Assembly: GCA_038230075.1 (NCBI GenBank)
Contig: JBBRNV010000001.1
Coordinates: 11,672 to 75,671 of the forward strand
Source of the DNA: Minisyncoccia bacterium
GTDB lineage: Bacteria > Patescibacteriota > Minisyncoccia > Phycocordibacterales > CALRBL01
Length of the DNA: 64,000 nucleotides
Reading direction: 5' to 3'
Program-made: the position numbers and the translations under genes
In this document: positions 3,099-59,476 of the stretch, one piece after another
Position numbering within the stretch: position 1 is the first letter of the stretch
Layout: each line of letters opens with the position of its first letter
Notes under the pieces: model-generated
Databases searched by the model: none
Seen by the model: the letters and a program-made list of their open reading frames with translations, nothing else
What the model was told of the DNA's origin: nothing

Positions 3099-4220
3099 AT
3101 GATGTACTCAAATGTTTTTCCAAAAATTAAAAGTATCATCAGTCATTTCTACACTGAAACATTCTTTCCCCTCAAGACAGAAGTAGATTTGAAATCGTTT
3201 CAAAGTAGATTTAATCTTGTCCTAAAAGAACATCTTGAAAAAAAACTTCAAATATATAGAAAAATAACAAATAATTCTGAAGTATTTGATGTAATGAAGT
3301 ATGCAGTTGAACTGGTCTGTGAAGGTGGAAAGAGAGTTCGCCCTTATATGTTCTATCTTGCGAATTTGTCTGAGGGCGGAACAGACACCGAAGAAACACT
3401 AAAGCTTGCAATCTCACTTGAATTATTTCATGCCTTTGCTTTGATTCATGACGACATTATTGATCGAGGGACAGAACGTCATGGAAAATTAACAACCCAT
3501 GTGTATACAGAAAAGGCAATTTCGGCATTTCCACGAGGTGATAAAAAGCACATAGCAGAAGGAATGACAATTCTTGCGGGTGATCTCATGTTTAGCTGGT
3601 CTCAAGAAATCATTGGAAAAAGTCACACACAAGAATTAAAAGATATTTTTTATACAATGGTAGATGAGGTGGTTGCTGGACAAACCCTTGATGTGACATT
3701 TATGCTTCAATATGAAGTAACTTCTGAGTCTATTGCTAGAAAAAATGAATTAAAAACAGCACTGTATTCATTTGTAAATCCAATGCTTATGGGATCTGTA
3801 CATGCACAATCACATGTACACGATCAATTTTATCGGGAATTTGGTCTCATCATCGGCCAGGCGTTTCAAATTCAGGATGATCTTCTAGATATTACAGGCA
3901 GTTCGAAAAAGTTAGGAAAAAATACTTTTTCCGATATTAAAGATGGTCAACACACATTCTTAAGTCAGTATGTTTTTGAGAGTGCTGATATTCAAGGAAA
4001 AGATTTGCTACGATCGCTTTTTGGAAAAGAACTTGACGATCATGCACGCAGTGCACTTACTCGTTTGTTTACTTCAAGTGGAGCCGCTGCATATGCATCA
4101 AAAAAAGTTAGTACTCTGATTACTGAAGCACGAACATTGATTGATGAAAGTACATTTAAAACAGTTTATAAAAAACGATGGCATGATTTTGTGAATCTAC
4201 TTGAACATCGAAACTCGTAA
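3099..4220 (+). CDS. polyprenyl diphosphate synthase (trans-isoprenyl diphosphate synthase; FPP/GGPP synthase family)
   Basis: First DDxxD motif LIHDDIIDRGTERHGK and second motif FQIQDDLLD. 373 aa. Confidence 0.8.
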   Translation: MMYSNVFPKIKSIISHFYTETFFPLKTEVDLKSFQSRFNLVLKEHLEKKLQIYRKITNNSEVFDVMKYAVELVCEGGKRVRPYMFYLANLSEGGTDTEETLKLAISLELFHAFALIHDDIIDRGTERHGKLTTHVYTEKAISAFPRGDKKHIAEGMTILAGDLMFSWSQEIIGKSHTQELKDIFYTMVDEVVAGQTLDVTFMLQYEVTSESIARKNELKTALYSFVNPMLMGSVHAQSHVHDQFYREFGLIIGQAFQIQDDLLDITGSSKKLGKNTFSDIKDGQHTFLSQYVFESADIQGKDLLRSLFGKELDDHARSALTRLFTSSGAAAYASKKVSTLITEARTLIDESTFKTVYKKRWHDFVNLLEHRNS

Positions 4221-4221
4221 T

Positions 4222-5121
4222 ATGCCATATCCTGAATATTCTTCGGATGTAATGTTTTGCAAAAAGATCCATAAGAAATATGGAAAAAGTTTTTATTTTG
4301 GAACATTTTTATTTGAAAAAAGTGCACGAGAGGCTACATGTATTTTATACGCCTTCTTTAGGTATCCCGATGAATATGTTGATACATATTTTAACGATCA
4401 AAAAGAAATTGCGCGCACTAAACTTCTTGAATGGCAAAATACTTGGAAAAAGGTATTTAACAATGAGGTTGTTGCTATTGAACAAGATCAATTAAAGATT
4501 TTGCGTGCAGCGCGATATGTTTTTAAAACATATCACATTCCATTTGAATACAGTGAAGCATTTATTGGTGCAATGCTTCAAGATACGATTAAACAAACAT
4601 ATGAAACCTACAAAGAATTAGAAGAGTACATGTATGGGTCAGCTGTGGTTGTTGGGTTGATGATGACTCATGTGCTTTGTTCAAAAGATCAGAAGTTTTT
4701 AGAAGATGAGAAATATAGAAATACTATACTTAGTAAGGCGCAATCACTTGGAGAAGGTTTTCAAATGACAAATTTTCTCCGAGATATTTCAGACGATTTA
4801 CAAACAAGAGGAAGAATTTATCTCCCTCAAGAAGATCTTGTTAAGTATGGCGTGACGACGAAGATGTTAACAGAAAAGACTCTTACAACAGAATTTATTT
4901 CTATGATGAAATTTGAGATCAATAGAACAAAAGAATTGTATGTGGTCGGAGATGAAGGAATTCCACTTCTACCAAAGAATGCTCAAAAAGGAATTCGTGT
5001 TGCACGAGTGTTGTATTCAAGTATTCTCAATAAAATCGAAGACACCAAGTACAATATTTTTCGAGAACGAATACATCTTAGTTTTGTACAAAAGTTATTC
5101 GTTGCAATTAAATCTTTATAA
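4222..5121 (+). CDS. squalene/phytoene synthase family protein (CrtB/CrtM/HpnD-like)
   Basis: YCKKIHKKYGKSFYFG and GEGFQMTNFLRDISDDLQTRGRIYLPQEDL match SQS_PSY signatures. The ORF track starts at a TTG at 4201 overlapping the upstream stop. The ATG at 4222 lies immediately after the upstream TAA. Confidence 0.75.
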   Translation: MPYPEYSSDVMFCKKIHKKYGKSFYFGTFLFEKSAREATCILYAFFRYPDEYVDTYFNDQKEIARTKLLEWQNTWKKVFNNEVVAIEQDQLKILRAARYVFKTYHIPFEYSEAFIGAMLQDTIKQTYETYKELEEYMYGSAVVVGLMMTHVLCSKDQKFLEDEKYRNTILSKAQSLGEGFQMTNFLRDISDDLQTRGRIYLPQEDLVKYGVTTKMLTEKTLTTEFISMMKFEINRTKELYVVGDEGIPLLPKNAQKGIRVARVLYSSILNKIEDTKYNIFRERIHLSFVQKLFVAIKSL

Positions 5122-5122
5122 T

Positions 5123-6637
5123 ATGAGTCAAGAACAACAAAAAAAAGTTATCGTTATTGGATCAGGAATCGGCGGTATTGCCACTGCGTGTTTACTCGGA
5201 AAGAAAGGGTATAAAGTGACCATTCTTGAAAAATTGTCAGAGTATGGAGGAAGAGGAAGGGTGTTTAGTGAAAAAGGTTTTACATTCGATATGGGCCCTT
5301 CGTGGTACATGATGGCAGACGTTTTCGAGGAATTTTTTGCAGCACTTGGAGAAAATATTAATGATTACCTTTCACTTCAGAGATTGTCTCCTTCATATCG
5401 TATTTTTCTCAAGAGTGAAATGAAGCATTATGACTTCTACAGTGATATTGAAAAAAATAGGGAAATATTTGAGTCAATTGAACCAGGATCTGGTGATGTT
5501 CTTAAAAAATATTTAGAAGATTGTAAGTATCAATACGACATAGCAAAAAAAGAATTTATTTTTAAAAATTACGATTCGATTTTTGATTTCTTTAATAAAC
5601 GAGTAATGACTGAGGGAAGAAAACTCCCCATTTTCAAAAAAATGAATCAAATTGTGGAAGCGTCATTTAAAAGTGAAATACTCCAAAAAGTCTTGCAATA
5701 TCAAACAGTTCTTTTAGGAACTTCACCTTTTGATGCTCCTGGAATTTACGCTCTTATGAATCATGTTGATTTTAATGGTGGAGTTCATTATCCGAAAGGA
5801 GGAATCACAAAACTCTTTGAAGCATTAATTACTGTGGCTAAAAAGAATGGTGTTTCTTTTAGAAATAACGCTGAAGTTCTTACCATAAATGTTGAGGAAG
5901 AAAATGTAACTGGTGTGACATTAAAAAATGGAGAAGTGCTACGTGCTGATATTGTTGTTTCAAATGCAGATATTGAGCACACTGATCAGAAGTTACTAGA
6001 ACCCGAATATCGACAAAAAACTCCGAAATATTGGGATACTCGAAAAATGGCACCTTCTGCATTCATTATGTATCTAGGGCTAAAAGAAAAAGTTCCATCT
6101 CTTTCACATCACAATTTATTATTTTCAGAAGATTGGAAAAAAGGATTCGATGAAATCTTTAAAGATCCAGTGTACCCAACTGACATTTCACTATATGTCT
6201 GCGCTCCTTCAAAAAGTGATGCTTCTGTTGCACCAGAAGGAAAAGAAAATTTGTTCATTCTTGTTCCGATTGCCGCAGGGCTTCCTGATAATGAAAAAAT
6301 TAGAGCATCATTTGAGGAAAATGTTCTCGACGTCATAGAAAAATATATGGGTGTAAAAAATATGAGAGATTTGATTGAATATAAAAGAGTTTATTCAGTG
6401 AATAACTTTAGAACCGACTATAATGCTTTTAAAGGAACGGCACTTGGCTTGGCACACAATTTTATGCAAACATCTTTTTTTAGACCAAATAACATAAATA
6501 AAAAAGTTAAAAATTTGTATTACGTCGGAGCGGGAACTAATCCTGGAATTGGTATGCCAATTTGTATCGCATCTGCAGAATTGGTATATAAACGAATTAT
6601 GGGTATTACAGATCCTGAGCCTCTTAAAAACGTGTAA
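5123..6637 (+). CDS. phytoene desaturase family FAD oxidoreductase (CrtI/CrtN-like)
   Basis: N-terminal Rossmann VIVIGSGIGGIATACLL. GFTFDMGPSWYMMADVFEEFF and C-terminal NLYYVGAGTNPGIGMP align to CrtI. The upstream in-frame extension to 4913 overlaps the previous gene and is read-through. Confidence 0.8.
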   Translation: MSQEQQKKVIVIGSGIGGIATACLLGKKGYKVTILEKLSEYGGRGRVFSEKGFTFDMGPSWYMMADVFEEFFAALGENINDYLSLQRLSPSYRIFLKSEMKHYDFYSDIEKNREIFESIEPGSGDVLKKYLEDCKYQYDIAKKEFIFKNYDSIFDFFNKRVMTEGRKLPIFKKMNQIVEASFKSEILQKVLQYQTVLLGTSPFDAPGIYALMNHVDFNGGVHYPKGGITKLFEALITVAKKNGVSFRNNAEVLTINVEEENVTGVTLKNGEVLRADIVVSNADIEHTDQKLLEPEYRQKTPKYWDTRKMAPSAFIMYLGLKEKVPSLSHHNLLFSEDWKKGFDEIFKDPVYPTDISLYVCAPSKSDASVAPEGKENLFILVPIAAGLPDNEKIRASFEENVLDVIEKYMGVKNMRDLIEYKRVYSVNNFRTDYNAFKGTALGLAHNFMQTSFFRPNNINKKVKNLYYVGAGTNPGIGMPICIASAELVYKRIMGITDPEPLKNV

Positions 6638-7486
6638 TTATTTTGCTAAAAGGACAAGAAAGAAAAGAATCATTCCAACTAATGTATTTATTTTTGGAAA
6701 GTATGTATAGAGAGTAAATAATTCATCACTAGTTTTTGAACGGAGAGAAAGAATCATAAGCGATGTATAGATAATAAATCCTCCGATTCCGAACAAGGAA
6801 AAGTAACGATATGCAACAAAGCTTGAAATTGTATAAAGAAAAAGACAAAGAACTAGCGTTTTTTGCGCACCTAAATATGTAGCAATTGTGTGTAGGTGTG
6901 CATCGGTATCAGCTTTAATGTCGGGAACCGCTGAATATGCATGCATGGCAATTGCCCATGCCATTCCTCCAACTAAAGGAATTAAAGGAAATCCGATTCC
7001 ACCTGCGACATAATAACCAACTACAGCCGTTGCAATGTAATGACCTGCGCTAAAAAGACTATCAAGAAAAGGTTTTGCTTTTGCACGAATCGGCTTCGAA
7101 GAGTAGAACCCTGCAAAGAATAGAAAAGCGATAAGTGAAAGAAGTGTTGCTCTTGAAATGGTCACAAAAAAGAGAACGATAATAAAAACAAGACTGCTTA
7201 GAATGATCCATCTCCACAGAGAAGTGTGTTCTTCTCGTGCGACAAGTGATTCGTAAGCTATTTTCTTTGGATTTAATTTGTCAGTTTCATAATCAAATAT
7301 ATCGTTAATTCCATAAATAAAGATATTGGCAGGAAAGGTAAAGTAAACAGAGAAGATAATAAATGGAAGTGAGTGCCAAGAATAGTCTCCTGCATGAGCA
7401 ACTGCAGCAAATCCTAGTATAAATGAGCCTAATTCGTATATCCAAAACCGCGGGCGGCTAATACTGAGAGCTCTTTTGAGATTCAT
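6638..7486 (-). CDS. UbiA-family membrane prenyltransferase
   Basis: 282 aa polytopic membrane protein with NDIFDYETD (NDxxDxxxD) motif. Convergent with, and abutting, the CrtI-like gene. Confidence 0.7.
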   Translation of the reverse strand: MNLKRALSISRPRFWIYELGSFILGFAAVAHAGDYSWHSLPFIIFSVYFTFPANIFIYGINDIFDYETDKLNPKKIAYESLVAREEHTSLWRWIILSSLVFIIVLFFVTISRATLLSLIAFLFFAGFYSSKPIRAKAKPFLDSLFSAGHYIATAVVGYYVAGGIGFPLIPLVGGMAWAIAMHAYSAVPDIKADTDAHLHTIATYLGAQKTLVLCLFLYTISSFVAYRYFSLFGIGGFIIYTSLMILSLRSKTSDELFTLYTYFPKINTLVGMILFFLVLLAK

Positions 7487-13247: not shown

Positions 13248-13940
13248 ATGATCGATATGGATATCTCCATTCAGATCGTTAACTACAATACAAAAAAATA
13301 TCTCATTGATTGTCTCGATTCTATCAAACTAGATTTGAAGAATTCGAAACTTACGTATGAAGTGCTTGTCATCGACAATGCCTCTCATGACAATCTCGAC
13401 GATCTTACTTCAATGTATGGTCCAACATTCTCATTTGTGAAAAACAGTGAGAATGTTGGTTTTGGTGCAGCACATAATATTTTGGCAAAACAAGCCAAAG
13501 GAGATTTCATTTTTCTCCTTAATCCAGATACTAAATGCATTGAGCCAAATACTGTAGAACGCTTACTTACGAGTCTTAAAACAAATAAAGTAGACATACT
13601 TGGTCCAAGATTAAAAACAGAACATGGTTTACCTCAAGAATGGGATCATGGAGATCTTTCGACTCAACCATTCCAACTGTATAAAGATTTCTTTTGTCAC
13701 AATACCTATAGTCAAAAAAACGAAACATGTTTGGTTTCCTGGGTGTCTGGAGCAGCTTTTCTTATTGATAGAAAACTATTTGAGAGACTTAATGGATTTG
13801 ATCCAAACTTCTTCCTATATCATGAAGAAGTTGATTTATGCGAGAGAGCGAGAAGTGTTGGTGTTAAGGTATTATACGATCCAACAATTCAAATTCTTCA
13901 TCATGGAGGTGTTGTTGCAGTGAAAAATGATCATTTGTAG
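13248..13940 (+). CDS. family 2 glycosyltransferase
   Basis: N-terminal ISIQIVNYNTKKYL and VIDNAS D-x-D-type region typical of GT2. Confidence 0.65.
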   Translation: MIDMDISIQIVNYNTKKYLIDCLDSIKLDLKNSKLTYEVLVIDNASHDNLDDLTSMYGPTFSFVKNSENVGFGAAHNILAKQAKGDFIFLLNPDTKCIEPNTVERLLTSLKTNKVDILGPRLKTEHGLPQEWDHGDLSTQPFQLYKDFFCHNTYSQKNETCLVSWVSGAAFLIDRKLFERLNGFDPNFFLYHEEVDLCERARSVGVKVLYDPTIQILHHGGVVAVKNDHL

Positions 13941-14819: not shown

Positions 14820-15338
14820 TTACCACGTATTGCAGGAGGTAAGATCGCTACATATTTTCCAAGTGCTTGGTGCTGGAATCCAACTATCTCTGAAATCATA
14901 AAATCTGCTATTGGCGGAAGGATAGCTTTCGGGGGTGACATAACTCAATAATTTATAATTAACACCATCTGATGTATAGATAAATCCCGACCAAGGATCT
15001 GCAATGTTTCGTTTTGGATCAGTTGGAAGAGTAGAAATATATTTCGGCGCTAAGTTGGGAACATATCCACCAGGTCCTGTAAAAACTCCATCACTTTCTT
15101 TGAGCCAATTCGATGAACCTCCTGTACTTGGATATGTTCCGTTGTCAGCATAGTAGGCGTTGATAGCCTTTTCTAATTGAAGTAAATTTTGTACCCGTTG
15201 AGTATCTCGGGCTTTAGTCCTCGCACTTGCTACTGAAGCGAAAACAACTGAAGATAAAACAGAAACAATAGAGACAACTACGAGAAGTTCTATCAGGGTA
15301 AAACCTTTTTCTGTGTTTCTTTTAAGATGTAAAGTCAT
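14820..15338 (-). CDS. type IV pilin / pseudopilin-like protein (prepilin N-terminal methylation motif)
   Basis: KGFTLIELLVVVSIV, a class III signal peptide cleaved after G by prepilin peptidase. Confidence 0.7.
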   Translation of the reverse strand: MTLHLKRNTEKGFTLIELLVVVSIVSVLSSVVFASVASARTKARDTQRVQNLLQLEKAINAYYADNGTYPSTGGSSNWLKESDGVFTGPGGYVPNLAPKYISTLPTDPKRNIADPWSGFIYTSDGVNYKLLSYVTPESYPSANSRFYDFRDSWIPAPSTWKICSDLTSCNTW

Positions 15339-16369: not shown

Positions 16370-16383
16370 GATAGAATCTTTAT

Positions 16384-17151
16384 ATGAAGTACGACATGTA
16401 TTCTCTTATTGTGTTTGACCTCGACGGAACTCTCACTGTCAGTAAGTCTGATTTGTCGGTAGAGATGGCACAAACCCTCTCAAAATTACTACAGAGAAAA
16501 TTAGTGGGGGTTATTTCCGGAGCGTCATATCAACAATTTCAAGATCAATTTGTTTCTGTTCTCGAAAAAGTGCTCGATGAAAAGATACTGCTCTCAAAAT
16601 TAATGCTTCTTCCAACAACTGGTCTTAGTTTCTATAGATATCAAGGAGGTGAGTGGACTTCTCAGTATTCTGAAATTCCTGACGAAGATTTTAAACAAAG
16701 AATTAGAGTGTCACTTAAAGAAGTGCTTGAAATGCATCCTGAACTTAATATTCCACATGATTTTGACAATCAACTTGAAGATAGGGGAAGTGAAATGACG
16801 TTTTCAGCGCTTGGCCAACATGCTGATGTTGAACATAAAAAAGTATTTGACCCTGATCGCTCGAAACGAGCAGTTCTTGTGAGAGAACTTCTTGAAAAGT
16901 TGCCAGATGCAAATATTGCATTTGGTGGTATGACCTCTATCGACATCACAAAAAAAGGATTTGATAAAGCTTACGGAGTGCAACGTCTCTGTGATACAAT
17001 TAGCATCAATAAAAGTGAAGTTTTGTATATCGGAGATGCGCTCGAACCTGGAGGAAATGATTTTAACGTGAAAGAGGCTGGGTTCGATACAATATCAGTA
17101 ACAGATCCAAGCGACACACAAATTCTCATCACTCAAATTTTACATGATTAA
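16384..17151 (+). CDS. phosphomannomutase, eukaryotic-type (HAD-IIB)
   Basis: FDLDGTLT HAD motif I. The C-terminal PGGNDFNV...ISVTDPSDT aligns with eukaryotic PMM PGGNDxEI...SVTxPxDT. Confidence 0.7.
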   Translation: MKYDMYSLIVFDLDGTLTVSKSDLSVEMAQTLSKLLQRKLVGVISGASYQQFQDQFVSVLEKVLDEKILLSKLMLLPTTGLSFYRYQGGEWTSQYSEIPDEDFKQRIRVSLKEVLEMHPELNIPHDFDNQLEDRGSEMTFSALGQHADVEHKKVFDPDRSKRAVLVRELLEKLPDANIAFGGMTSIDITKKGFDKAYGVQRLCDTISINKSEVLYIGDALEPGGNDFNVKEAGFDTISVTDPSDTQILITQILHD

Positions 17152-17488
17152 TAAGTTTATTGATAACAGACCATGGGGTAAAGAAGAACACTTTATCCAA
17201 AATGAAAAAGCAACGGTAAAATTGCTCTATGTAAAAGCGCGAGAAAAATTAAGTCTACAATTTCATCATAAAAGAAGTGAGTTTTGGAAAATCATCGCAG
17301 GTTCTCCTATTATTGTTATTGAAGATCAAGAAATCACGGCTCAAGTTGGTGATGAATTTGATATTCCTGTTGGAGCAAAACATAGAATTATGGGAGGGGA
17401 AGATGAAGCCATTATTTTAGAAATTGCAGAAGGAGATTTTGACGAGAACGACATTACTCGGTTAGATGATGCCTACGGGCGTACGTAG
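17144..17488 (+). CDS. mannose-6-phosphate isomerase, type II cupin domain
   Basis: RPWGKEE..LSLQFHHKRSEFWKIIAGSP..VGDEFDIPVGAKHRI matches the type-II PMI cupin signature (LSLQxHxHRxEHW). Confidence 0.7.
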   Translation: MINKFIDNRPWGKEEHFIQNEKATVKLLYVKAREKLSLQFHHKRSEFWKIIAGSPIIVIEDQEITAQVGDEFDIPVGAKHRIMGGEDEAIILEIAEGDFDENDITRLDDAYGRT

Positions 17489-19340
17489 TATGTTATTTTC
17501 AAAGACGAGTAAAAAAATGATTATCGAACCAATTGGTGTCATTCGAAACAATGATATCGACATGTTTCTGTGTAAATCTATTTCGTCTAAAACATCTCTT
17601 GTCTACTATAAAACAACAGATGGAAAGAATTTTTCAAAAATAAAAAAATCGATAAGTATTGTATGGCAGCGTAAAGAAATTGTTGTTGACGATATTGAGG
17701 ATGCTCGATTTTCAGAAGTGGGTGATTATCATTTGTTAACATTTAAGATTGGAAAAAAAGTCTACTTTGCAACATCAAAAGATTATTTTGAGTTTAAGGT
17801 TATTTCGCAATCATCGGAATTTAAAGAAGTTCCTTTGGTAATTTCTCATTTTTCATATAAAGGTGGATGTGTTGCTCTTTATAGAGACCCACAATTTGGA
17901 ATTGCTGTGTCGCACGATCTAAAAACGTGGAGATTTTCAAATATTATGGGAGCTGAGAAGGCGGTAGATGCACTTCATCATAAGGAAAATAGAATTATTG
18001 GAGCAATGCGTTCTGATCGAGGCATTTTAATTTTATACGATAAGTTATACGAAAGAACGGCAGATGCTCAGTACAATCCGAAAAAAGAGCATGTACTTGA
18101 AATTCAAGGAGTTATGCTTTCAGAATTGCAGCCATATCGAGCGTTGTGGGCCTCAGATTCGCCGCTATATGTAGAAGCGTCTAAAATTCCTTTCCAAGGT
18201 CAACCACTTGCGGCATTTCTTGATAGAACTTCTATCTCTGTATATTGGAAATCAAACGAAGCAACATTTTTTAGTTTAATTCTTCCAAAAATATTCGGCG
18301 AACCAACTGATGTAGCAAATGTAAAACTTGATAAGCATGTACATAATCCTGTAATTAGGCCAAATCCTGACAATTATTGGGAATCAGTTCAAACATTCAA
18401 CCCCGCTGCACTTTATTTAGATGGGAAAGTGCACCTACTCTATCGAGCCATGGGATCTGCGGGTATTTCTTATTTGGGATATGCAGCGAGTGATGACGGA
18501 TACACATTCGATGAACGTTCAAAAGAGCCTGCGTATTGGCCAAGAAAAGAATTTGAAGGAACAACAACGCCAGTTTCTTCATATACCGACGAATTTATGT
18601 CAGGAGGTGGATGGGGAGGTTGTGAAGATCCTCGACTCGCAGTGATTGACGACAAAGTATATTTAACATATGTCGCATACGATGGATGGAGAGCTCCACG
18701 TGTGGCACTTTCAACAATCACCACAAAAAACTTTCTTAAAAAGAAATGGGACAAATGGACTGAACCAATTCTTCTTTCAAAACCACATCAAACAAACAAA
18801 AACTCCTGTTTTCTTCCTGCAAAAATTAACGATAAATTTGTTATTTTTCACCGAGTCTTTCCTAATATTCTAATTGATTATGTTGAAGATTTAGATTTCG
18901 GAGAACATGCAAAATGGCTTGAAGGACATCACAAAATTGAACCACGTGGCACCCATTGGGATAGTCGAAAATTAGGAGTTGGAGCAACACCAATCAAGAC
19001 TGATATGGGTTGGCTTTTGATTTATCAAGCGGTTGATGACCGACATGACAGTCAATATAAAATTGGAGCGATGATTCTCGATCTTCATCATCCAGAAAAA
19101 GTGTTGTATCGAACAAACAAGCCAATTTTGATTCCAGATATGGAATATGAAAATAGAGGACACAAATCAGGTGTCGCATATCCATGTGGAGCAATAATTA
19201 AAGACGATACACTTTTTGTGTATTACGGAGGAGCTGACAGCGTGGTGTGTGTTGCATCACTTCCGCTTAAAAAGTTTTTATCGGGCATGAAGCATCACAA
19301 AGATATAAAACTTTCAGTTAAAAAGGCATCTATTTCTTAA
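17466..19340 (+). CDS. GH130-family glycoside phosphorylase (DUF377) with N-terminal extra domain
   Basis: C-terminal ~330 aa contain GCEDPRL, YLTYVAYDG, GWLLIYQAVDD and YYGGADSV GH130 signatures. N-terminal ~280 aa unassigned. Alternative start ATG at 17490, immediately after the upstream stop. Confidence 0.75.
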   Translation: MMPTGVRSMLFSKTSKKMIIEPIGVIRNNDIDMFLCKSISSKTSLVYYKTTDGKNFSKIKKSISIVWQRKEIVVDDIEDARFSEVGDYHLLTFKIGKKVYFATSKDYFEFKVISQSSEFKEVPLVISHFSYKGGCVALYRDPQFGIAVSHDLKTWRFSNIMGAEKAVDALHHKENRIIGAMRSDRGILILYDKLYERTADAQYNPKKEHVLEIQGVMLSELQPYRALWASDSPLYVEASKIPFQGQPLAAFLDRTSISVYWKSNEATFFSLILPKIFGEPTDVANVKLDKHVHNPVIRPNPDNYWESVQTFNPAALYLDGKVHLLYRAMGSAGISYLGYAASDDGYTFDERSKEPAYWPRKEFEGTTTPVSSYTDEFMSGGGWGGCEDPRLAVIDDKVYLTYVAYDGWRAPRVALSTITTKNFLKKKWDKWTEPILLSKPHQTNKNSCFLPAKINDKFVIFHRVFPNILIDYVEDLDFGEHAKWLEGHHKIEPRGTHWDSRKLGVGATPIKTDMGWLLIYQAVDDRHDSQYKIGAMILDLHHPEKVLYRTNKPILIPDMEYENRGHKSGVAYPCGAIIKDDTLFVYYGGADSVVCVASLPLKKFLSGMKHHKDIKLSVKKASIS

Positions 19341-19349
19341 TTTTTATAT

Positions 19350-21341
19350 ATGTATAACGTAAAACGAAATCAACATAATCCTATTTTGAACCCTGAGCGC
19401 ATGCGTGCTTGGGAAGGTGATGCAACATTTAACTGGTCAGGTATAAAAGAAGGAAACACTGTTCATTTGGTATATAGAGCTTTAGAGAAACATAAACGAA
19501 TTGAAGACAAAGAGTTAGAGTTTTCAACAATTGGATACTGTAAGAGTACTGACAAGCTTTCAACGTTGAAAGATCGAAGACAACTTATTACACCTGAATA
19601 TAATTGGGAAAAGTTTGGATGTGAAGATCCCCGAATTCATAAAATTGGAGACACCTACTACATTTTTTATACAGCACTTGGAACGTTTCCATTTGGTCCT
19701 GATGGTATTAAGGTAGCATTAGCAAAAACAAAAAATCTGAAAGATATTACAGAAAAGCATCTTCTGACTCCGTTTAATGCGAAGGCAATGACACTATTTC
19801 CTGAAAAGATAAAAGGGAAGATTGCGGCATTTGTGAGTGTTGATACCGACAGACCTGACCGTGGGGTAAAACTTGGTTACATCACATTTAATTCAGAAGC
19901 AGATATTCTTTCTCATGAATATTGGAATTCGTGGTATCAAAATATTCAAGAAAATCAATTACATCTCGCACGAAATTCAGGAGAGCAAATTGAAGTAAGT
20001 GCTCCGCCAATTAAAACAAAATATGGATGGTTACTTATTTATTCACATATTCAAAATTACTTCAGTAATGATAGGGTTTTTGGAGTTGAGGCGGTATTAC
20101 TTGATCTTAAAGACCCACGAAAGGTTATTGGAAGAACTCAATTTCCTTTTTTGGTACCAGAAGAAGTGTATGAAGAATTTGGACAAGTTCCCGCTATTGT
20201 TTTTCCTAGTGGTGCGTACCTTGATAAGGAAAAGGGTAAAGATGTTGTTGTTTTGCTCTACGGCGCAACAGATACTACAGGCTGCGCAGCCACCATTCCA
20301 CTTGATGAGTTGTTAGTGTCTCTGAAAAATGGAACGGAGCAATTTATTCGTTCACCTAAAAATCCCCTCATTATTCCAAACGAACTTCACTTATGGGAAG
20401 ACGTTGCTGTTTTTAATCCAGCTGCAGTTCGAATTGATGGAACAACTCACATTTTTTATAGAGCCATGGGCAAAGAGAATACTTCAGTCATAGGCCTTGC
20501 CCTTTCAAAAGACGGGGTAAAGATTGATCGAAGATTTAAAGATCCTATATATATACCTCGCGCTGATTTTGAAAAAAAGGCAAAAGAAGGAAATTCAGGA
20601 TGCGAAGATCCTCGTGCAACAATTATTGGTGATCGACTATTCTTGGTATACACAGCATATGATGGCATACGACCTCCAGGAGTTGCCATGACATCAGTTT
20701 CAATTAAAAAATATACCGAAGCTGTTTCTCATATGGTCAAAGATATTAAGGGAACAGTAGAAGTGAGAATTCCTTGGGATGAGCCTGTTTTTGTATCACT
20801 GCCAAATCTTGATGATAAAGATGCACTTCTTTTTGGTGAGAAGTTCAATAAAGCATGGTGGATGTTTCATCGAGTAAATCATAATGTGTGTTTTGATATT
20901 CTTTTTGGATTGCAACCAGAAAAATTAAAATCACCTGATGATTTACGGAAACAAAATGTTAAAATGCATAATGTAACTCCACTGTTCGGTCCACGACGTG
21001 GTATGTGGGATAGTAAAAAAGTTGGTGTTAATTGTCCACCTGTTAAAACAAAGGCCGGATATCTTCTTCTCTATCATGGAATTGGAGAAGATCACATATA
21101 TAGAGTAGGGGCAGTACTTCTCGATTTAAATGATCCATTCTCTGTTATAGGACGAAGTTCGCAGCCTATTTTCGAACCTAATGCAGAATATGAAAAGAAA
21201 GGAATAATTCCAAATGTAGTGTTTCCTTGTGGATTAGTTGTTGAAAAAGATTTACTCCATATTTATTACGGAGGAGCAGACACCGTGGTTGGTATGGCGG
21301 GAATGAGTTTAAAAAAGCTCATTGAGCAGCTTCTTGCATAA
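19350..21341 (+). CDS. tandem double-GH130 glycoside phosphorylase
   Basis: Two complete GH130 repeats in one 663-aa protein, each with GCEDPR(I/A), Y-x-Y-TA, GWLLIY/GYLLLYHG and YYG(G)ADT motifs. Confidence 0.8.
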   Translation: MYNVKRNQHNPILNPERMRAWEGDATFNWSGIKEGNTVHLVYRALEKHKRIEDKELEFSTIGYCKSTDKLSTLKDRRQLITPEYNWEKFGCEDPRIHKIGDTYYIFYTALGTFPFGPDGIKVALAKTKNLKDITEKHLLTPFNAKAMTLFPEKIKGKIAAFVSVDTDRPDRGVKLGYITFNSEADILSHEYWNSWYQNIQENQLHLARNSGEQIEVSAPPIKTKYGWLLIYSHIQNYFSNDRVFGVEAVLLDLKDPRKVIGRTQFPFLVPEEVYEEFGQVPAIVFPSGAYLDKEKGKDVVVLLYGATDTTGCAATIPLDELLVSLKNGTEQFIRSPKNPLIIPNELHLWEDVAVFNPAAVRIDGTTHIFYRAMGKENTSVIGLALSKDGVKIDRRFKDPIYIPRADFEKKAKEGNSGCEDPRATIIGDRLFLVYTAYDGIRPPGVAMTSVSIKKYTEAVSHMVKDIKGTVEVRIPWDEPVFVSLPNLDDKDALLFGEKFNKAWWMFHRVNHNVCFDILFGLQPEKLKSPDDLRKQNVKMHNVTPLFGPRRGMWDSKKVGVNCPPVKTKAGYLLLYHGIGEDHIYRVGAVLLDLNDPFSVIGRSSQPIFEPNAEYEKKGIIPNVVFPCGLVVEKDLLHIYYGGADTVVGMAGMSLKKLIEQLLA

Positions 21342-21367: not shown

Positions 21368-22003
21368 ATGAAACAACAAAAAATTATCGTTTTAATTTTG
21401 TTAGTTCTTGTTATTATTTTGGTTGTCTTTGTTGTGAGGAAAGGAACTACACCAAATACTGATATACAAAACAATGTTCCAACAACTGCAACATCAACAA
21501 CTCCTGTGAATGTTTCAATAGCTGAAGTAAAAAAAGCACTACTATCTGCAACTGTGACTATTCCGGACGAAGGGACAAAAGCTCAATTGGTAAATGGTGA
21601 AGTTGATTGGCAAGCAACAGACGAAGTTCATGGTTCAATTGGGCTCATTCCAGATGTTCTCGCTATTCATGGAACAGATGTGCTTGCAGCATTCGGTGTT
21701 TCTTCAGGAGGAACAGGAGAGTTTTCTTACGTTTTTCTTTTTTCATATAAAAACGGTAAACTTACGCACACTTCAAGTTATTTCTTAGGAGATCGAATTC
21801 TTGTTAAAAAAATAAATACTGACACATTTGAAGCAAAAGCAAGTGAGGGTGAATATATTGCAAGCATTTCGATTGTTGATAGAGGAGAAAATGAACCGAT
21901 GGCCGCCGAACCAACAATTGCTAAAACTATAAACATTGCAGTTAAAAATGGAGTTTTTAATGAACAGTCGGTAAAAATAACAAGTCCTATCTTAGAACAA
22001 TAA
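21368..22003 (+). CDS. membrane-anchored hypothetical protein
   Basis: N-terminal TM (IIVLILLVLVIILVVFVV) followed by a T-rich linker and a beta-rich domain. Confidence 0.4.
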   Translation: MKQQKIIVLILLVLVIILVVFVVRKGTTPNTDIQNNVPTTATSTTPVNVSIAEVKKALLSATVTIPDEGTKAQLVNGEVDWQATDEVHGSIGLIPDVLAIHGTDVLAAFGVSSGGTGEFSYVFLFSYKNGKLTHTSSYFLGDRILVKKINTDTFEAKASEGEYIASISIVDRGENEPMAAEPTIAKTINIAVKNGVFNEQSVKITSPILEQ

Positions 22004-22009
22004 ATTTGT

Positions 22010-23170
22010 ATGCTTCAGAAATATTCGACTTCATCACATGGAACCAGTGAGACACAAGATGCTTTAAGATTTAAAGCAACACACGATGCCGATACTGCAA
22101 AAAGAAAGCTTGCAGATCAAAAGCGTATCCAAATAATGAGTAAGAAAAGCTTCTTATCTTCTACAATTTCTGAATTACAGAGAAAACAGGCAGATGTAAG
22201 AAAGATTGAACAAGATGCTCGAGCACTTGAGCAGCATTCTCAAGAATCTGAAAGAGAAATCAACCTTCTTAAGAATAACTTAACAGTTGCTGAAGCTGAG
22301 TTGCAAAATATAGAAAGAAAAGTCCAAGATGTTGAAAGAGAAAAGGGTACAACTGAGAGTCGAATATCTTTGTTAAAAGAAGAATTACATAAAAAAGAAT
22401 CACATTTTTTAACAGACTTAAAATTAAAGCAAACAAAAAAGTCGCACGTCACAGAAATTGAAAATGAATTACAACGAGAAAAGACTGAAATAGAAAAGAC
22501 AAAAAATGAAGTAAGGTCTTTACATAATGAAGTTGCAATAAATGAACATTCTGTTAGTACGTTTGAAAAAGAGATTACAAGCTTACTAACTACTGTTCAA
22601 TCAAAAGATAGAGAAGTCTTGAATGTTAAAAGACAAATCGAAGAGCTACAATCTAAACTGAGAGACTTGGTAACTAGTCTACAAATATCGAAAGATGAAG
22701 TGTTAAAAAAGCAAAATCAAGTTGCCGAACATAAGAGAATGACCGAATCTAAAATGACAAAACTTGGAGCACTAGAGACTGCAGTCAAAACTAAAGCTTC
22801 TCATGTGCAAACCAGATTGTCAGATAAGACCCGTGCTCTTGAAGAATCGAAAAGTGTTGAAATGGAAAGTGGGCAACTAGATCACGACAGCTCAAGTATT
22901 AAACGTGAAGAAAAGCTAAAAGAAACCATTCTTCACAGTGAAGATCATCAACTTCAAGAAGTTGAGAAAAAGAAGCAGGCGTTTGAAAATGATATTCGAG
23001 TTATAAAAAATAATCTTTCAAAAAAAGAAAGTCAGATTTCTCAAGATAAGAAACTCGTAGAAACAAAGAAGGCGCAAAAAGTCGCAGTAGAGCAAGAAGT
23101 AAAAAATCTTGAAATGAATAGAAAGAATTATGAAATTGAAATTCGTCGGCTAGAACAAGAAATTATGTAA
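22010..23170 (+). CDS. long coiled-coil protein (E/K/Q-rich)
   Basis: 386 aa almost entirely heptad-like E/K/Q/L-rich sequence. No TM segment. Confidence 0.5.
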   Translation: MLQKYSTSSHGTSETQDALRFKATHDADTAKRKLADQKRIQIMSKKSFLSSTISELQRKQADVRKIEQDARALEQHSQESEREINLLKNNLTVAEAELQNIERKVQDVEREKGTTESRISLLKEELHKKESHFLTDLKLKQTKKSHVTEIENELQREKTEIEKTKNEVRSLHNEVAINEHSVSTFEKEITSLLTTVQSKDREVLNVKRQIEELQSKLRDLVTSLQISKDEVLKKQNQVAEHKRMTESKMTKLGALETAVKTKASHVQTRLSDKTRALEESKSVEMESGQLDHDSSSIKREEKLKETILHSEDHQLQEVEKKKQAFENDIRVIKNNLSKKESQISQDKKLVETKKAQKVAVEQEVKNLEMNRKNYEIEIRRLEQEIM

Positions 23171-23171
23171 T

Positions 23172-24041
23172 ATGAAATTCTCAAGCCATAAAATTTATCA
23201 CCATTATGGAAAAAGTCTGTACGCAGCTAGTTTGTTTTTTCCAAAGAATGTTAGAGTTGCATGTCATGCCCTCTATTCCTTTATAAAAATAGCTGATCAT
23301 GCCATTGCTCCGTTTCAAAATGATTTGCAAAAAGCCTCTGAAGTCTTAGATTTGTGGAAAATTGAATGGCAAAAAGCTTTTGACTCTGGAATGGCAAAAG
23401 ATAAACAGTTAAATAAAATCGCGGTCGTCTTTCATCAGTACGAAATTCCATATAATGAAACGGTTACTTTTTTAGAATCACTTTTAGCCGATATTTCTAC
23501 ATCTGAATATAAGAATTATCAAGATCTCGAAATGTATATGATGAGTTCGTCTTCAATTATTTGCATCATGATGGCTCGTTTAATAGGTATTAATAGTGGA
23601 AATAGATATCCTAAAGATGAGATTACATGGCAACCCCTTCTTAAAGCAGCTCAAATACTTGGAATAACTTTTCACATGACTAGTTTCTTACGTGATATTA
23701 AAGAAGATGTGTGTATTCGAAATAAAATATATCTTCCGCAAACAGAATTAGAAACATATGGAGTAACTAAAGAAATGTTGATTGTGGGAAAAGTTACCCC
23801 AGAATTTACCGATCTTATGAAATTTCAAATTGAAAGAATAAGATTATTTTATGCAGAATCTGAGAAGAGTTTAGTACTGGTTCATCCAAGCTGCCAAAGA
23901 GCTTTGAAAATTATTATGAGAGTGTATGAAGATGTTATTAATAAAATTGAGAAAAGTAATTACGATGTTTTCTCGAAAAAGCCAAAAACTAGAATTTGGG
24001 AAAAAATGATGCTAGCTTTCAAACTTGCTCGTCCGCATTAA
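23172..24041 (+). CDS. second squalene/phytoene synthase family paralog
   Basis: YHHYGKSLYAASLFFPKNVR and LGITFHMTSFLRDIKEDVCIRNKIYLPQTEL parallel the motifs of the 4222..5121 gene. Starts 1 nt after the coiled-coil gene stop. Confidence 0.7.
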   Translation: MKFSSHKIYHHYGKSLYAASLFFPKNVRVACHALYSFIKIADHAIAPFQNDLQKASEVLDLWKIEWQKAFDSGMAKDKQLNKIAVVFHQYEIPYNETVTFLESLLADISTSEYKNYQDLEMYMMSSSSIICIMMARLIGINSGNRYPKDEITWQPLLKAAQILGITFHMTSFLRDIKEDVCIRNKIYLPQTELETYGVTKEMLIVGKVTPEFTDLMKFQIERIRLFYAESEKSLVLVHPSCQRALKIIMRVYEDVINKIEKSNYDVFSKKPKTRIWEKMMLAFKLARPH

Positions 24042-29664: not shown

Positions 29665-31194
29665 TTATTCTACTGCTAAATTTATTCCAGTCATTCCTTT
29701 TGGTTTTTCAATTCCAAGATAGGCAAGTGTTGTTGGAGCAAGACTTGTTAGTGATTGATTATCGACAAGTTTGGCAATGTTTGGATCAGTGATAATACAT
29801 GGAACCAAGTTAGTTGTGTGTGCGGTATGAATTGTTTTTGTTTCTAAATCAACATTTACTTCAGCATTTCCATGGTCTGCGGTAACAATGGCTATTCCTT
29901 TTTTTTCAACAAGAGCAGTAACAACTCGTTCTAATTGTTTGTCTACTTCTTCAACTGCTTCAATAATTGCAGGAACGTTTCCTGTGTGTCCAACCATGTC
30001 AGGATTGGCAAAGTTAATAAAAATAAAGTTTGTTCCTTTGTTGATATGCTCAATTGCTTTGTCTGCAATAGCCTCAGCTCGCATTTCAGGAGCTTTATCG
30101 TGAGTCTGCACATCTTTTCTACTTTCAAGTAATTCGTGAACTTCACCCTTGTGAGGAATTTCTCTTCCTCCGTTTAAAAAATAAGTAGCGTGAGGAAATT
30201 TTTCTGTTTCTGCAATGTGAGCTTGTGTTAAGTTAGCTTCTGAAATTTCTGCTGCAAGTGTTGTTTCTGCTTCAATTGCAGGAAATGCGACCATCGCTTT
30301 AAGTTCTTTTTGATATTCAGTCATTGTTACAAAACAAAGATTCATGGTCGTAACTTGCTCAGCAATTTTTTTAGAAATCATTCGTGCTCTGTCAGATCGA
30401 AAATTAAAAAATAAAACCCCGTCATTTTTTTCGATTTTATATGATTTGTTATTGTCATCAAGAAAAACAATTGGTTCAACGTGTTCATCGACAATGCCAA
30501 GTTCATACAACTTCTCAAAAGTTTCACTTGGTGTATTTGTTTTGATTGTGTGTTTTTCACTAAGACTTTTTGCGTTGAATAATACATTTTCTACTTTTGA
30601 GATTCTGTCCCAGTTATTGTCTCTATCCATAGCGTAAAAACGTCCTGAGGCTGATGCAATGAATCCAATACCAACAACCCTAAGAACTTGTTCCAGTTCT
30701 TTTATATATGCCGCGGCGCTTTGTGGAGCGGTATCTCGACCGTCGGTATAGATATGAATTGCAATTTTATGTATTCCAGCCTTCTTAGCGGCCTTAAGGA
30801 ATGCAAAAAGATGCTCTTGATGACTGTGTACGCCTCCGTCGCTTAGTAACCCTTTAATGTGAAGAGTGGAATCAAATTTTTTTACGTGTTTGAAAAGAGA
30901 AGTGAATGCTGGGTTTGAAACAAACTCATCGTTATCTATCGATTTTTTGATTCTAACTAAATCTGTATCGAGCGCTCTTCCTGCTCCAATGGTAGTGTGA
31001 CCAATCTCGCTATTTCCCATCTGACCTTGAGGCAAACCAACAGCTAGTCCAGAAGCATCAAGGAGTGTGTGAGGGTAGGTACTCCAAAGAGAGTCGAAAA
31101 AGGGAGTTTTCGCCTGTGCAATAGCATTGTTCGTGGTGTATTCTCGATGACCCCATCCGTCGAGAATAATAAGTACAACTTGTTTGTGTTCCAT
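29665..31194 (-). CDS. gpmI: 2,3-bisphosphoglycerate-independent phosphoglycerate mutase
   Basis: VVLIILDGWGHRE N-terminus and full-length alignment to iPGM. Confidence 0.9.
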   Translation of the reverse strand: MEHKQVVLIILDGWGHREYTTNNAIAQAKTPFFDSLWSTYPHTLLDASGLAVGLPQGQMGNSEIGHTTIGAGRALDTDLVRIKKSIDNDEFVSNPAFTSLFKHVKKFDSTLHIKGLLSDGGVHSHQEHLFAFLKAAKKAGIHKIAIHIYTDGRDTAPQSAAAYIKELEQVLRVVGIGFIASASGRFYAMDRDNNWDRISKVENVLFNAKSLSEKHTIKTNTPSETFEKLYELGIVDEHVEPIVFLDDNNKSYKIEKNDGVLFFNFRSDRARMISKKIAEQVTTMNLCFVTMTEYQKELKAMVAFPAIEAETTLAAEISEANLTQAHIAETEKFPHATYFLNGGREIPHKGEVHELLESRKDVQTHDKAPEMRAEAIADKAIEHINKGTNFIFINFANPDMVGHTGNVPAIIEAVEEVDKQLERVVTALVEKKGIAIVTADHGNAEVNVDLETKTIHTAHTTNLVPCIITDPNIAKLVDNQSLTSLAPTTLAYLGIEKPKGMTGINLAVE

Positions 31195-31215: not shown

Positions 31216-32544
<1,329 letters not shown>

Positions 32545-55665: not shown

Positions 55666-56754
55666 ATGACCAACAAATCAAAGGTGATCTTAGGGATTAT
55701 TGCAGCCATTATTATCATAGGAGGTATTTGGATTGTTAATGTAAATCGTAATAATGAGCCAAAAAATTTGACCTTTGGTTTGATCTCTAATCTCACTGGA
55801 GATTACTCTGCAGTAGGAGAATCATTTGCAAAAGGTGCAGACTTAGCTCAGTCTGAATGGAATACAGCACATCCAAACCAACAAATTCAAATGATAAAGG
55901 AAGATGATGGCTTTGATGCAAAGAAAGGTCTTTCTGCTTATAAAAAACTTACAAGCATTGATCATATTGATGCTTTAATCAATACAACCACAATTACTAT
56001 TGATGCACTATATGATGATGTATCAAAATCTGGCATACCAGTAGCACTTGGATTCGAGCAAGGAATCGAAGCGAGAGACGATAATGTAGTCCAGTTATGG
56101 CCAGGAAGTGTGCCTGCAGAAGTAAAGCTTGGAGAAGCAATCAAAGAAAAAGGATTTAAGAATATTGTATTATTCGTCGATAACGGCTCCGCCGCTTTTC
56201 AGCGATTTGCAGATGGTTTTAAGAAAGGATATGGATTACCAGTGCAAGAAATAAAAATAGCTGCTGATGGAAGTGATGTGCGTACAAGCGCTCTCAAGGC
56301 AAGCACACTCAAGCCCGACGCAGTTGTATTTATTATCAAACCCACTTCAGGAGCACTTTTGGTTAAAGAATTGAAATCAATTAGTAAAGATAATTATCAA
56401 TTCGTGTTTGATGCCAATATTCAGACAGGTTTTACTGACTACACAAAAATTCTTGGTGATACTAATGTTTTGAATGGTAGTATTATTTATACTGTACCGA
56501 GCGTCTATCGAAAAGACTTTACAGATAATTTCAAGAACAAATTCGGCACGGAGCCAACTATTGGATCAGAGACCGGTTATAACGCATTTAAACTTCTTGC
56601 TCAAAGCTATGATGAAAATAAAGAAAAATGGGTTAAAAATATGCAGGAAGCCAGCTTTGATGGTGCAGACGGAAAGATTGTATTCGATGAGAATGGTATA
56701 AGAATTCCTGAACTTAAAATTGGTACGATTGAGAATGGAAAGCTCCCAAACTAA
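55666..56754 (+). CDS. ABC transporter substrate-binding protein, Liv/branched-chain amino acid type
   Basis: N-terminal signal/TM anchor and type I periplasmic-binding fold. Followed, after the island, by a livH-like permease fragment. Confidence 0.7.
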   Translation: MTNKSKVILGIIAAIIIIGGIWIVNVNRNNEPKNLTFGLISNLTGDYSAVGESFAKGADLAQSEWNTAHPNQQIQMIKEDDGFDAKKGLSAYKKLTSIDHIDALINTTTITIDALYDDVSKSGIPVALGFEQGIEARDDNVVQLWPGSVPAEVKLGEAIKEKGFKNIVLFVDNGSAAFQRFADGFKKGYGLPVQEIKIAADGSDVRTSALKASTLKPDAVVFIIKPTSGALLVKELKSISKDNYQFVFDANIQTGFTDYTKILGDTNVLNGSIIYTVPSVYRKDFTDNFKNKFGTEPTIGSETGYNAFKLLAQSYDENKEKWVKNMQEASFDGADGKIVFDENGIRIPELKIGTIENGKLPN

Positions 56755-56776: not shown

Positions 56777-56812
56777 AAGCCACCGAAAATCTTTCGACTT
56801 CGGTGGCTTTTG
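56777..56812 (+). terminator. rho-independent terminator of the SBP gene
   Basis: AAGCCACCGAA-aatctttcgac-TTCGGTGGCTTTTGG. Confidence 0.55.
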
Positions 56813-56833
56813 GTTAAGGGTTAACGTTTCGGG

Positions 56834-57649: not shown

Positions 57650-57737
57650 GAGATATGGCCTTTCTTTGTAGGTTGGATTTGAACGTTAAGTTGGAAAAGG
57701 GCTGGATTGCCTCTAATAACATAGTAACACAACTGTA

Positions 57738-57766
57738 TTGACAAGTCAAATTCGATGTGATAAGAT
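57738..57766 (+). promoter_or_regulatory. candidate promoter TTGACA-N17-TAAGAT with TTGAC-aa-GTCAA inverted repeat over the -35
   Basis: Identical hexamers and spacing to the promoter candidate at 59520..59548. Sits in the divergent AT-rich gap. Confidence 0.35.
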
Positions 57767-57831
57767 TTCGACCAAAGCACTTTACAAGTTGGTCATAGCT
57801 AAAAGTCCTTATTTTTTAAGGATTCCTAACT

Positions 57832-59432: not shown

Positions 59433-59476
59433 GAAAAAGCGAATGAAGCTGAGCAAGGTTCAATCCCAAGCTCACG

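Follow-up and report, generated by a model that had tools for sequence, protein, structure and literature searches.

The DNA considered here is a stretch of 64,000 nucleotides, hereafter the window, on contig JBBRNV010000001.1 of a Minisyncoccia bacterium (assembly GCA_038230075.1), and our subject is a compact cluster of four genes at its positions 16384–21341, all on the + strand. The first gene (16384..17151) encodes a 255-aa HAD-IIB α-hexose-phosphate mutase of the phosphomannomutase (PMM) or PgmH type (Pfam PF03332, NCBIfam TIGR01484), and the second (17144..17488) a 114-aa stand-alone cupin of the type-II phosphomannose isomerase (PMI) kind (PF01050). They are followed by a 624-aa GH130 protein (17466..19340), matched once by PF04041, and a 663-aa double-GH130 protein (19350..21341), matched twice. 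The mutase and PMI open reading frames (ORFs) overlap by 8 bp, the 663-aa ORF begins 9 bp past the end of the 624-aa ORF, and no overlap or gap across the four ORFs exceeds 23 bp. The start of the 624-aa gene is ambiguous, with ATG codons at 17466, 17490, and 17517; the public NCBI copy (P0121) uses the third. The N-termini of the four ORFs were inspected, and no signal peptide or membrane segment was found in them; the products are therefore expected to be cytoplasmic. An earlier interpretation of the window, made from the letters alone (the sequence-only reading), had described these genes as one coherent cluster, and their exact coordinates, common strand, and conservation across many genomes bear this out.

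The GH130 matches cover residues 306–608 of the 624-aa protein (E 8.7e-47) and two stretches of the 663-aa protein (E 3.7e-93). The C-terminal domain of the 624-aa protein, here called propeller A (18321..19340, +), is of phosphorylase type with a β-1,2 signature. Repeat 1 of the 663-aa protein, propeller B (19350..20333, +), keeps the sugar site and the catalytic Asp and has lost the phosphate site, and repeat 2, propeller C (20349..21341, +), has a canonical β-1,2-mannoside phosphorylase signature. The three are mutually 29–36% identical and roughly equidistant from Teth514_1788. Compared separately, all three are closest to the β-1,2 enzymes Teth514_1788/1789, Lin0857, and Uhgb_MS, the best match of A being 9fj8 (Teth514_1788) at E 1.4e-52, in agreement with the earlier assignment of the cluster to β-mannoside phosphorolysis. 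The best NCBIfam model for the GH130 domains, the β-1,2-mannobiose phosphorylase equivalog NF052550, scores under its cut-off of 450 bits in every case (389 bits for the whole 663-aa protein; 231.8, 179.3, and 215.1 bits for A, B, and C).

Diagnostic active-site positions were taken from Li et al. 2020 (PMC7660257), Cuskin et al. 2015 (PMC4599007), and Ladeveze et al. 2025 (PMC12814180), and residue conservation was counted over 115 homologs for A and 118 homologs for B and C. A catalytic site was recognized by the proton-relay Asp (UhgbMP D104), the −1 subsite Asn, and the Asp equivalent to UhgbMP D304. These residues are invariant in all three propellers: N312/D388/D591 in A, N28/D93/D308 in B, and N356/D420/D644 in C. 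The mark of β-1,2 specificity is a Glu beside the catalytic Asp together with a Lys at the position of UhgbMP R150, an E/K pair seen only in β-1,2-specific GH130 enzymes (PMC7660257). This pair is likewise invariant throughout (E387/K445 in A, E92/K145 in B, and E419/K490 in C). Phosphorylases were recognized by the Arg/His pair (UhgbMP R168/H231) and a third basic residue (Uhgb_MS R242); the phosphate ligands of Uhgb_MS are K184, R202, and R242 (PMC12814180).

Propeller C has the complete phosphorylase set. N356, R371, E419-D420, K490, H507-R508, K557, Y575-H576, and D644 are invariant or nearly so, including the diagnostic R508, K557, and H576, and a residue-level alignment with Uhgb_MS equates K490 with K184, R508 with R202, K557 with R242, and H576 with H261. 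Propeller A has the same set with a variant His position. N312, R327, E387-D388, K445, H462-R463, K502, Y531-K532, and D591 are conserved in 114–115 of the 115 homologs (K532 in 108), R463 and K502 being invariant, and the equivalent of His231 is His in 72, Gln in 38, and Tyr in 4; the window itself has Gln521.

Propeller B departs from this pattern on the phosphate side. N28, R43, E92-D93, K145, and D308 are invariant, and the basic ligands are gone: according to hhalign (E 7.5e-69 against C, 1e-64 against A), the Arg has become S163 (Ser/Thr/Ala in the family), the Lys/Arg H213 (His/Gln), and the His S232 (111/118). No conserved basic residue is found at positions 158–172. The position of the Tyr-Arg pair is taken by F244-G245; we considered this as a fourth lost phosphate ligand and dropped it, as Uhgb_MS and Lin0857 also lack that Arg. 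Three invariant carboxylates, D167, E215, and E247, are present in B and absent from A and C. D167 belongs to a three-residue insertion (T166-D167) right after the lost Arg, while E215 (118/118) and E247 (115/118) each stand opposite a Gly. The overall conservation of B resembles that of C, with 54 against 67 columns at least 97% identical.

Both repeats of the 663-aa protein thus look active at the sugar site, and only C could bind phosphate in the known way. The sequence-only reading had credited this protein with two complete GH130 catalytic repeats. That description fits C; B lacks the phosphate-binding Arg, Arg/Lys, and His family-wide, yet it is not a dead copy, its sugar-site residues and catalytic Asp having been kept. 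From this pattern, B would no longer depend on phosphate and is most likely a hydrolase. The replacement of basic residues by carboxylates has turned GH130 phosphorylases into hydrolases (PMC4599007). Hydrolysis appears likelier than sugar-nucleotide transfer because this replacement is the only known GH130 phosphorylase-to-hydrolase route (PMC4599007) and because the residues lost are those proposed to hold the diphosphate of GDP-mannose (PMC12814180).

The N-terminal ~285 residues of the 624-aa protein (17466..18320, +) have no Pfam or NCBIfam match. The sequence-only reading had suspected a degenerate third repeat here, and the profile and model comparisons confirm this view. An alignment of 22 such N-domains matches the double-GH130 family by hhalign with 99.2% probability (E 7.9e-20, 240 columns). 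The AF2 model of the domain is all-β (pLDDT 86.4, pTM 0.83), and the top 27 matches of a Foldseek search of the PDB with this model are all GH130. Conservation is absent at the sites of EDPR, Lys, His-Arg, Tyr-His, and GGxD, and no residue for catalysis or substrate binding is kept across the family; the window reads EDAR where active enzymes have EDPR, and the family consensus at this site is xFRxS. The catalytic set of proton-relay Asp, −1 subsite Asn, and D304-equivalent Asp is thus not present, and the mean frequency of the top residue is 0.41, compared with 0.68 for the C-terminal domain. The N-domain is confined to some lineages, protein A being ~400 aa elsewhere. It is a five-bladed GH130-like pseudo-enzyme domain, degenerate and non-catalytic. 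It presumably serves as a structural or glycan-binding partner that imitates the dimer of the solved GH130 enzymes.

The lid of the active site limits chain length in Lin0857, Uhgb_MS, and Teth514_1789 (PMC12814180). We measured the lid segment from the Arg of YRA to the Glu of EDPR. In B and C it spans 48–49 residues, the length found in Teth514_1788, which acts on long chains; in A, which has a conserved insertion of ~12 residues in this region, it spans ~60, compared with 54 in Teth514_1789. Because of these lid lengths, the sequences suggest that C acts on oligomers or longer chains and A on short substrates, as in the Teth514_1788/1789 pair. The question of whether the two propellers of the 663-aa protein pack against each other was addressed by structure prediction. 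The AF2 model (pLDDT 92.8, pTM 0.88) predicts a fixed pseudo-dimer of B and C, because these values are too high for two independently placed domains of 330 aa.

The double-GH130 fusion was found in at least 510 species genomes in a scan of one genome per species, mostly Patescibacteria and some Omnitrophota. The carriers include Paceibacterota, Nomura-, Zambryski-, Taylor-, Jorgensen-, Campbell-, Wolfe-, Sung-, Magasanik-, Peregrini- and Moraniibacteria, Saccharibacteria, and Omnitrophota, and the close relatives of the window GH130 genes are all Patescibacteria and Omnitrophota metagenome-assembled genomes (MAGs). Full-length homologs of the 663-aa protein number in the thousands, at 47–53% identity, and are unnamed or labeled "GH43/DUF377". 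The fusion is thus not the lineage-specific innovation it had been taken for in the sequence-only reading, being spread over many Patescibacteria lineages and Omnitrophota, and CAZy had already listed a few such proteins: four GH130-GH130 sequences among 1592 entries in 2018, mentioned in passing (Li et al. 2020, PMC7660257).

Gene order was compared at 83 loci searched with the window's domains, of which 57 have at least 3.5 kb of upstream sequence and were informative. An A-type GH130 gene, best matched by the C-terminal domain of the 624-aa protein, lies immediately upstream on the same strand in 57/57. Of the 57 loci, 32 have a PMI cupin homolog, which in 28 cases lies upstream in the same orientation. 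A PMM-like HAD homolog occurs at 22 loci and, at 17 of these, immediately precedes PMI in the same orientation. Where genes were called, in one closed Campbellbacteria genome, one JGI contig, and one Omnitrophica MAG, the order is PMM-PMI-GH130-doubleGH130 or PMI-GH130-doubleGH130. Natural A-B-C triple fusions also exist, in four proteins of 971–1110 aa (P0018, P0122, P0021, and P0001) with the propellers in gene order; P0001 has ~125 additional N-terminal residues. A, B, and C are a fixed set of three paralogous catalytic propellers in constant order, and the membership of the upstream GH130 propeller in this invariant set goes beyond what had been noticed before.

Stand-alone B-type proteins of ~325–330 aa are rare (P0260, P0266, and other representatives). 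Among wider single-domain GH130 relatives, the Arg/Lys and His are missing in other ways (signatures such as SWTQ and CWSS), and the known hydrolase subfamily may represent only part of the diversity of phosphate-less GH130 variants. The window propeller A is 56–58% identical to the copies at six loci (L003, L008, L013, L024, L047, and L062) and 39–52% identical at the other loci. Four of the six are labeled Omnitrophota, L024 is labeled Planctomycetia, and L062 Paceibacterota; most of the other loci belong to Patescibacteria. The identities of propellers B and C do not set the six loci apart from the others, and the pattern hints that the A gene was exchanged or that the long-form copies share a clade.

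The literature on GH130 in Patescibacteria or the candidate phyla radiation offered only passing mentions, including one sentence in a genome paper (PMC7143001). The tandem GH130 fusion itself is already catalogued and is common in Patescibacteria. Four features appear to be undescribed: the constancy of the three-propeller set, the conserved propeller B with its lost phosphate site, the pseudo-propeller, and the tight link with PMI and mutase genes across ultra-small bacteria.

The enzymes encoded upstream were assigned by profiles and motifs. The HAD protein matches PF03332 with 62.6 bits (cut-off 22.4, 6e-17) as well as TIGR01484 (HAD-IIB). The motifs FDxDxTL, I[ST]G, EDR, KR, and GDxxxxGGND are kept in 27 cluster-linked homologs, so that the profile and the motifs expected of a eukaryotic-type PMM are both present. 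Its best solved relative is the α-phosphoglucomutase of L. lactis (4bnd; E 1.4e-34, 123 bits), followed by eukaryotic and parasite PMMs in the PDB (E ~1e-16 to 1e-10, at most 63 bits). All of its PDB matches under E 1e-9 are mutases, and the remaining ones, to a HAD-like hydrolase and IMP-specific 5′-nucleotidases, are weak and partial (E 3e-5 or worse). The sequence thus places the HAD protein in the mutase branch comprising PgmH and the PMMs, and not among generic phosphatases, which had been named as the alternative that would undo the proposed route. The label of eukaryotic-type PMM is upheld as to this branch and softened by the closer relation to an α-phosphoglucomutase. We infer a specificity for mannose phosphate from the genomic context only, that is, from the position directly upstream of PMI.

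The cupin assignment agrees with the sequence-only reading. The 114-aa protein matches PF01050 with 64 bits (cut-off 23.6) and aligns with the C-terminal PMI part of TIGR01479 (positions 361–467), scoring 69.9 against the cut-off of 373 for this bifunctional equivalog. The type-II motifs RPWG, SLQxHxxRxExW, the His of "KHR", and LEIxxGxFxExDIxRxxDxYGR are kept in 36 cluster-linked homologs. Its matches to solved structures are weak only. A role as a free-mannose or lyxose isomerase was set aside, its sole support being a weak match to 2y0o (E 0.075) against the clear PF01050 match.

Building on the domain identities, the residue patterns, and the conservation of gene order, we propose substrates, an activity for B, and a source and direction of the flux as follows. 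Propellers A and C would phosphorolyse β-1,2-manno-oligosaccharides to α-mannose-1-phosphate (Man-1-P) in the cytoplasm. The HAD mutase would convert this product to mannose-6-phosphate (Man-6-P), and the cupin PMI would convert the latter to fructose-6-phosphate (Fru-6-P), the point of entry to glycolysis. Propeller B, which shares a polypeptide with C and keeps the mannose-binding residues and the proton-relay Asp, would work without phosphate. It would most likely be a cytoplasmic β-1,2-mannosidase that takes over at a bond or chain length where the phosphorylases stop. The mannoside could be a host or environmental glycan, imported somehow, or an endogenous β-1,2-mannan reserve. We assign a probability of roughly 0.55 to this reading as a whole, a cytoplasmic β-1,2-mannoside operon of Patescibacteria and Omnitrophota that feeds glycolysis and has a phosphate-independent propeller B.

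Several points weigh against it. β-1,2-Mannans are rare in nature, and no importer, mannanase, or other source of β-1,2-mannosides accompanies the cluster. A nearby sugar transporter or secreted mannanase had been suggested as something to look for, and neither these nor a guanylyltransferase or another β-1,2-mannoside source was found conserved with the cluster or among the annotated window genes. The PMM-like and PMI genes are missing at many of the 57 loci, and the HAD enzyme is, by sequence, nearer to phosphoglucomutase than to any PMM. The family has no characterized member, and all NCBIfam equivalog scores are under cut-off. Finally, the assignment of B as a hydrolase comes from a sequence pattern, and B has a conserved Lys/Arg at position 242 that might, in principle, remain able to bind an anion.

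A tentative alternative, which we would take seriously without expecting it to prevail, is that the pathway runs in the opposite direction. Fru-6-P would be converted via Man-6-P to Man-1-P, and the phosphorylases, working in reverse, would build an intracellular β-1,2-mannan reserve comparable to the mannogen of Leishmania. The polymer would later be phosphorolysed at no ATP cost, and B would prime, trim, or debranch it. A cluster whose conserved partners are just PMI and the mutase, with no conserved transporter or secreted glycanase and with all products free of signal peptides, is consistent with such a cycle, as is its occurrence in at least 510 species from habitats with no obvious external β-1,2-mannan nutrient. 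Teth514_1788-type enzymes make long β-1,2 chains from Man-1-P in vitro (PMC4264767, PMC12814180), and Leishmania has a tandem array of related propellers specialized for synthesis or phosphorolysis (PMC10913872). Conversely, net synthesis by reverse phosphorolysis requires a high Man-1-P/Pi ratio, and there is no report of β-1,2-mannan from these bacteria. An MFS sugar-type transporter directly downstream at one related locus is consistent with uptake, and the corresponding cluster of Thermoanaerobacter serves salvage and includes an ABC importer (PMC4264767).

It is also possible, although unlikely, that propeller B is catalytically silent. It would then be a glycan-binding or structural stand-in for the second subunit of the GH130 dimer, presenting the substrate to C. 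The solved GH130 enzymes are dimeric or larger (PMC12814180), the model predicts the fixed packing of B and C, and a non-catalytic propeller has already arisen in the same gene family, as the N-domain of the 624-aa protein. Nevertheless, in B all −1 and +1 subsite residues and the proton-relay Asp are invariant over the 118 sequences, whereas they are lost in the true pseudo-propeller. The three invariant carboxylates were gained exactly at the former phosphate-ligand sites, which resembles a changed chemistry and not decay, and B-type proteins also exist alone.

We further consider it doubtful that the HAD gene is simply the general α-phosphoglucomutase (PgmH type) of the cell, with no dedicated role in mannose metabolism. 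The 123 bits for the L. lactis enzyme, against at most 63 bits for PMMs, and the absence of the gene at 35/57 related loci would fit such a role. However, where the gene is present, it usually lies directly upstream of PMI on the same strand (17/22), the two genes overlap by 8 bp in the window, and PMM-family enzymes commonly accept both hexose phosphates. Least probable of all is that B is a sugar-nucleotide-dependent β-1,2-mannosyltransferase of the strict GT108 kind, making the 663-aa protein a synthase–phosphorylase fusion: strict GT108 transferases do lack the Arg present in GH130 phosphorylases, and GH130 β-1,2 phosphorylases have weak GDP-mannose transferase activity (PMC12814180), but the residues lost from B are the proposed GDP-mannose diphosphate holders (Uhgb_MS R202 and R242, with R242A cutting transferase activity ~10-fold; PMC12814180), the new carboxylates would repel the nucleotide diphosphate unless a metal bridges them, and no mannose-1-phosphate guanylyltransferase is present in the cluster or among the annotated window genes.

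The sequence-only reading had the route feeding the glycolytic genes gpmI (29665–31194) and eno (31216–32526). These lie on the minus strand, 8–11 kb downstream, beyond nine unrelated ORFs of at least 100 aa, six of them annotated (among them SQS_PSY, SNase, exonuclease VII, and two ABC exporters). Because of the opposite strand and the nine intervening ORFs, we regard eno and gpmI as housekeeping genes unlinked to the cluster. The divergent rsmG/gidB gene is separated from the PMM-like gene by only 14 bp (16370–16383), so that the promoters of both must lie inside coding sequence. A scan for consensus promoters and terminators at 15.6–22.1 kb gave no more sites than in shuffled sequence and so bears neither for nor against any division into transcription units. 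Directly 3′ of the double-GH130 gene (21368–23170) are genes for two proteins that have no Pfam match: one of 211 aa, anchored in the membrane at its N-terminus, and one of 386 aa, a Glu/Lys-rich coiled coil. Neither is kept downstream in the three related loci with gene calls. Just 5′ of the cluster are a GT2 glycosyltransferase of 230 aa (13248–13940), which matches polyprenol-phosphate mannose synthases in size, and a protein resembling type IV pilins, with a GFTLIELLVV motif (14820–15338).

Isoprenoid genes at 3099–7486 and 23172–24041 encode a polyprenyl synthetase, a flavin amine-oxidase-type desaturase, a UbiA prenyltransferase, and two members of the squalene/phytoene synthase family, one of them next to the GH130 cluster. 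The set resembles a pathway to squalene or carotenoids, here in a bacterium with a small genome. The GC content is 33–39% along most of the window and rises to 0.45–0.47 at 56800–60300, compared with ~0.36 elsewhere. This stretch holds two receiver-domain-like ORFs, a lipoprotein-like ORF, and a 327-aa ORF, and it is flanked by a solute-binding-protein-like ORF (55666–56754) and a LivH-like permease ORF (60337–60900). It looks like a foreign insertion within an ABC transporter operon; rRNA was rejected as an explanation of the high-GC stretch at 56–60 kb, as there is no Rfam match.

The significance of the cluster follows from the biology of its carriers. Patescibacteria have very small genomes and few recognizable sugar pathways, yet at least 510 species hold ~4–5 kb for three or four GH130 propellers. 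A propeller set retained in constant order, often with PMI and mutase, marks an important uncharacterized carbohydrate route. As the predicted substrate is rare, the cells would either exploit an unrecognized glycan, perhaps from their hosts, or make the polymer themselves. If the latter is true, the reserve would be an unrecognized energy and carbon store in ultra-small, host-dependent bacteria, built and mobilized without ATP or sugar nucleotides. Propeller B is a natural, strongly conserved example of a GH130 phosphorylase site that has been remodeled to do without phosphate ligands and is joined to a canonical phosphorylase in one protein, and it bears on the interconversion of phosphorylase, hydrolase, and transferase activities in the GH130 fold. 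It could also yield tools for making β-mannosides, which are hard to synthesize. Interest would be higher if a reserve polymer or a new chemistry of B were confirmed.

Among known systems, the closest is the Teth514_1788/Teth514_1789 pair (GH130_6, Thermoanaerobacter sp.), the best solved relatives of A, B, and C at 32–36% identity. The pair shares with the window the Asn, Arg, Glu-Asp, Lys, and Asp signature of the sugar site and the arrangement as adjacent paralogues with differing lid lengths, and it forms α-Man-1-P. In contrast, both Teth514 enzymes are single-propeller phosphorylases of ~300 aa, while the window has three catalytic propellers and a pseudo-propeller on two polypeptides, one of the propellers having no phosphate site. 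The Teth514 cluster also contains an ABC importer, a GH5 enzyme, and a guanylyltransferase (PMC4264767), where the window cluster has PMI, the HAD mutase, and no importer.

Propeller B is best compared with the GH130_3 β-1,2-mannosidases BT3780 and BACOVA_03624. In these enzymes, too, the −1 subsite is intact together with the catalytic Asp and the Glu/Lys pair, and the basic phosphate ligands are lacking; carboxylates take the place of the ligands in BT3780 and BACOVA_03624 (PMC4599007). BT3780-type enzymes are recognized by the loss of these ligands together with a carboxylate pair, E227/E268, serving as the base. Their genes sit in Bacteroides yeast-mannan utilization loci (PMC4599007), and, unlike B, many members of the GH130_3 sequence cluster have signal peptides (PMC7660257). 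B scores 65.5 bits against the BT3780-type model NF058598 (cut-off 550) and 179 bits against the phosphorylase model, and the BT3780 structure 5a7v never ranked above seventh in structure searches with propeller B queries, including a stand-alone relative (P0284) and a fragment. From these scores, any hydrolase character of B would therefore be an independent switch.

The upstream enzymes also have clear counterparts. The HAD protein shares the HAD-IIB fold, the PMM-type cap, and all catalytic motifs with L. lactis PgmH (4bnd) and eukaryotic PMM1/PMM2; PgmH is named a glucose-phosphate mutase, while the context of the window gene points to mannose phosphate. The cupin has the motifs and presumed metal ligands of the type-II PMI domain of bifunctional GMP/PMI (TIGR01479, PF01050) and differs in being a stand-alone protein of 114 aa with no guanylyltransferase domain. 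The same two-module GH130-GH130 architecture is present in the CAZy entries, which are catalogued only, with no biochemical or structural study and no mention of asymmetric active sites, an invariant third propeller, or a distribution in Patescibacteria and Omnitrophota. At the level of organization, a further parallel is the GT108 mannosyltransferase/phosphorylase (MTP) array of Leishmania, which has the same five-bladed propeller and proposed mechanism, although no GT108 chain is among the PDB sequence matches of the propellers at E ≤ 0.001. The MTPs are eukaryotic and encoded by separate genes, not fusions. They are nevertheless tandem paralogues specialized for different β-1,2-mannan reactions in a cytoplasmic reserve cycle (PMC10913872, PMC12814180).

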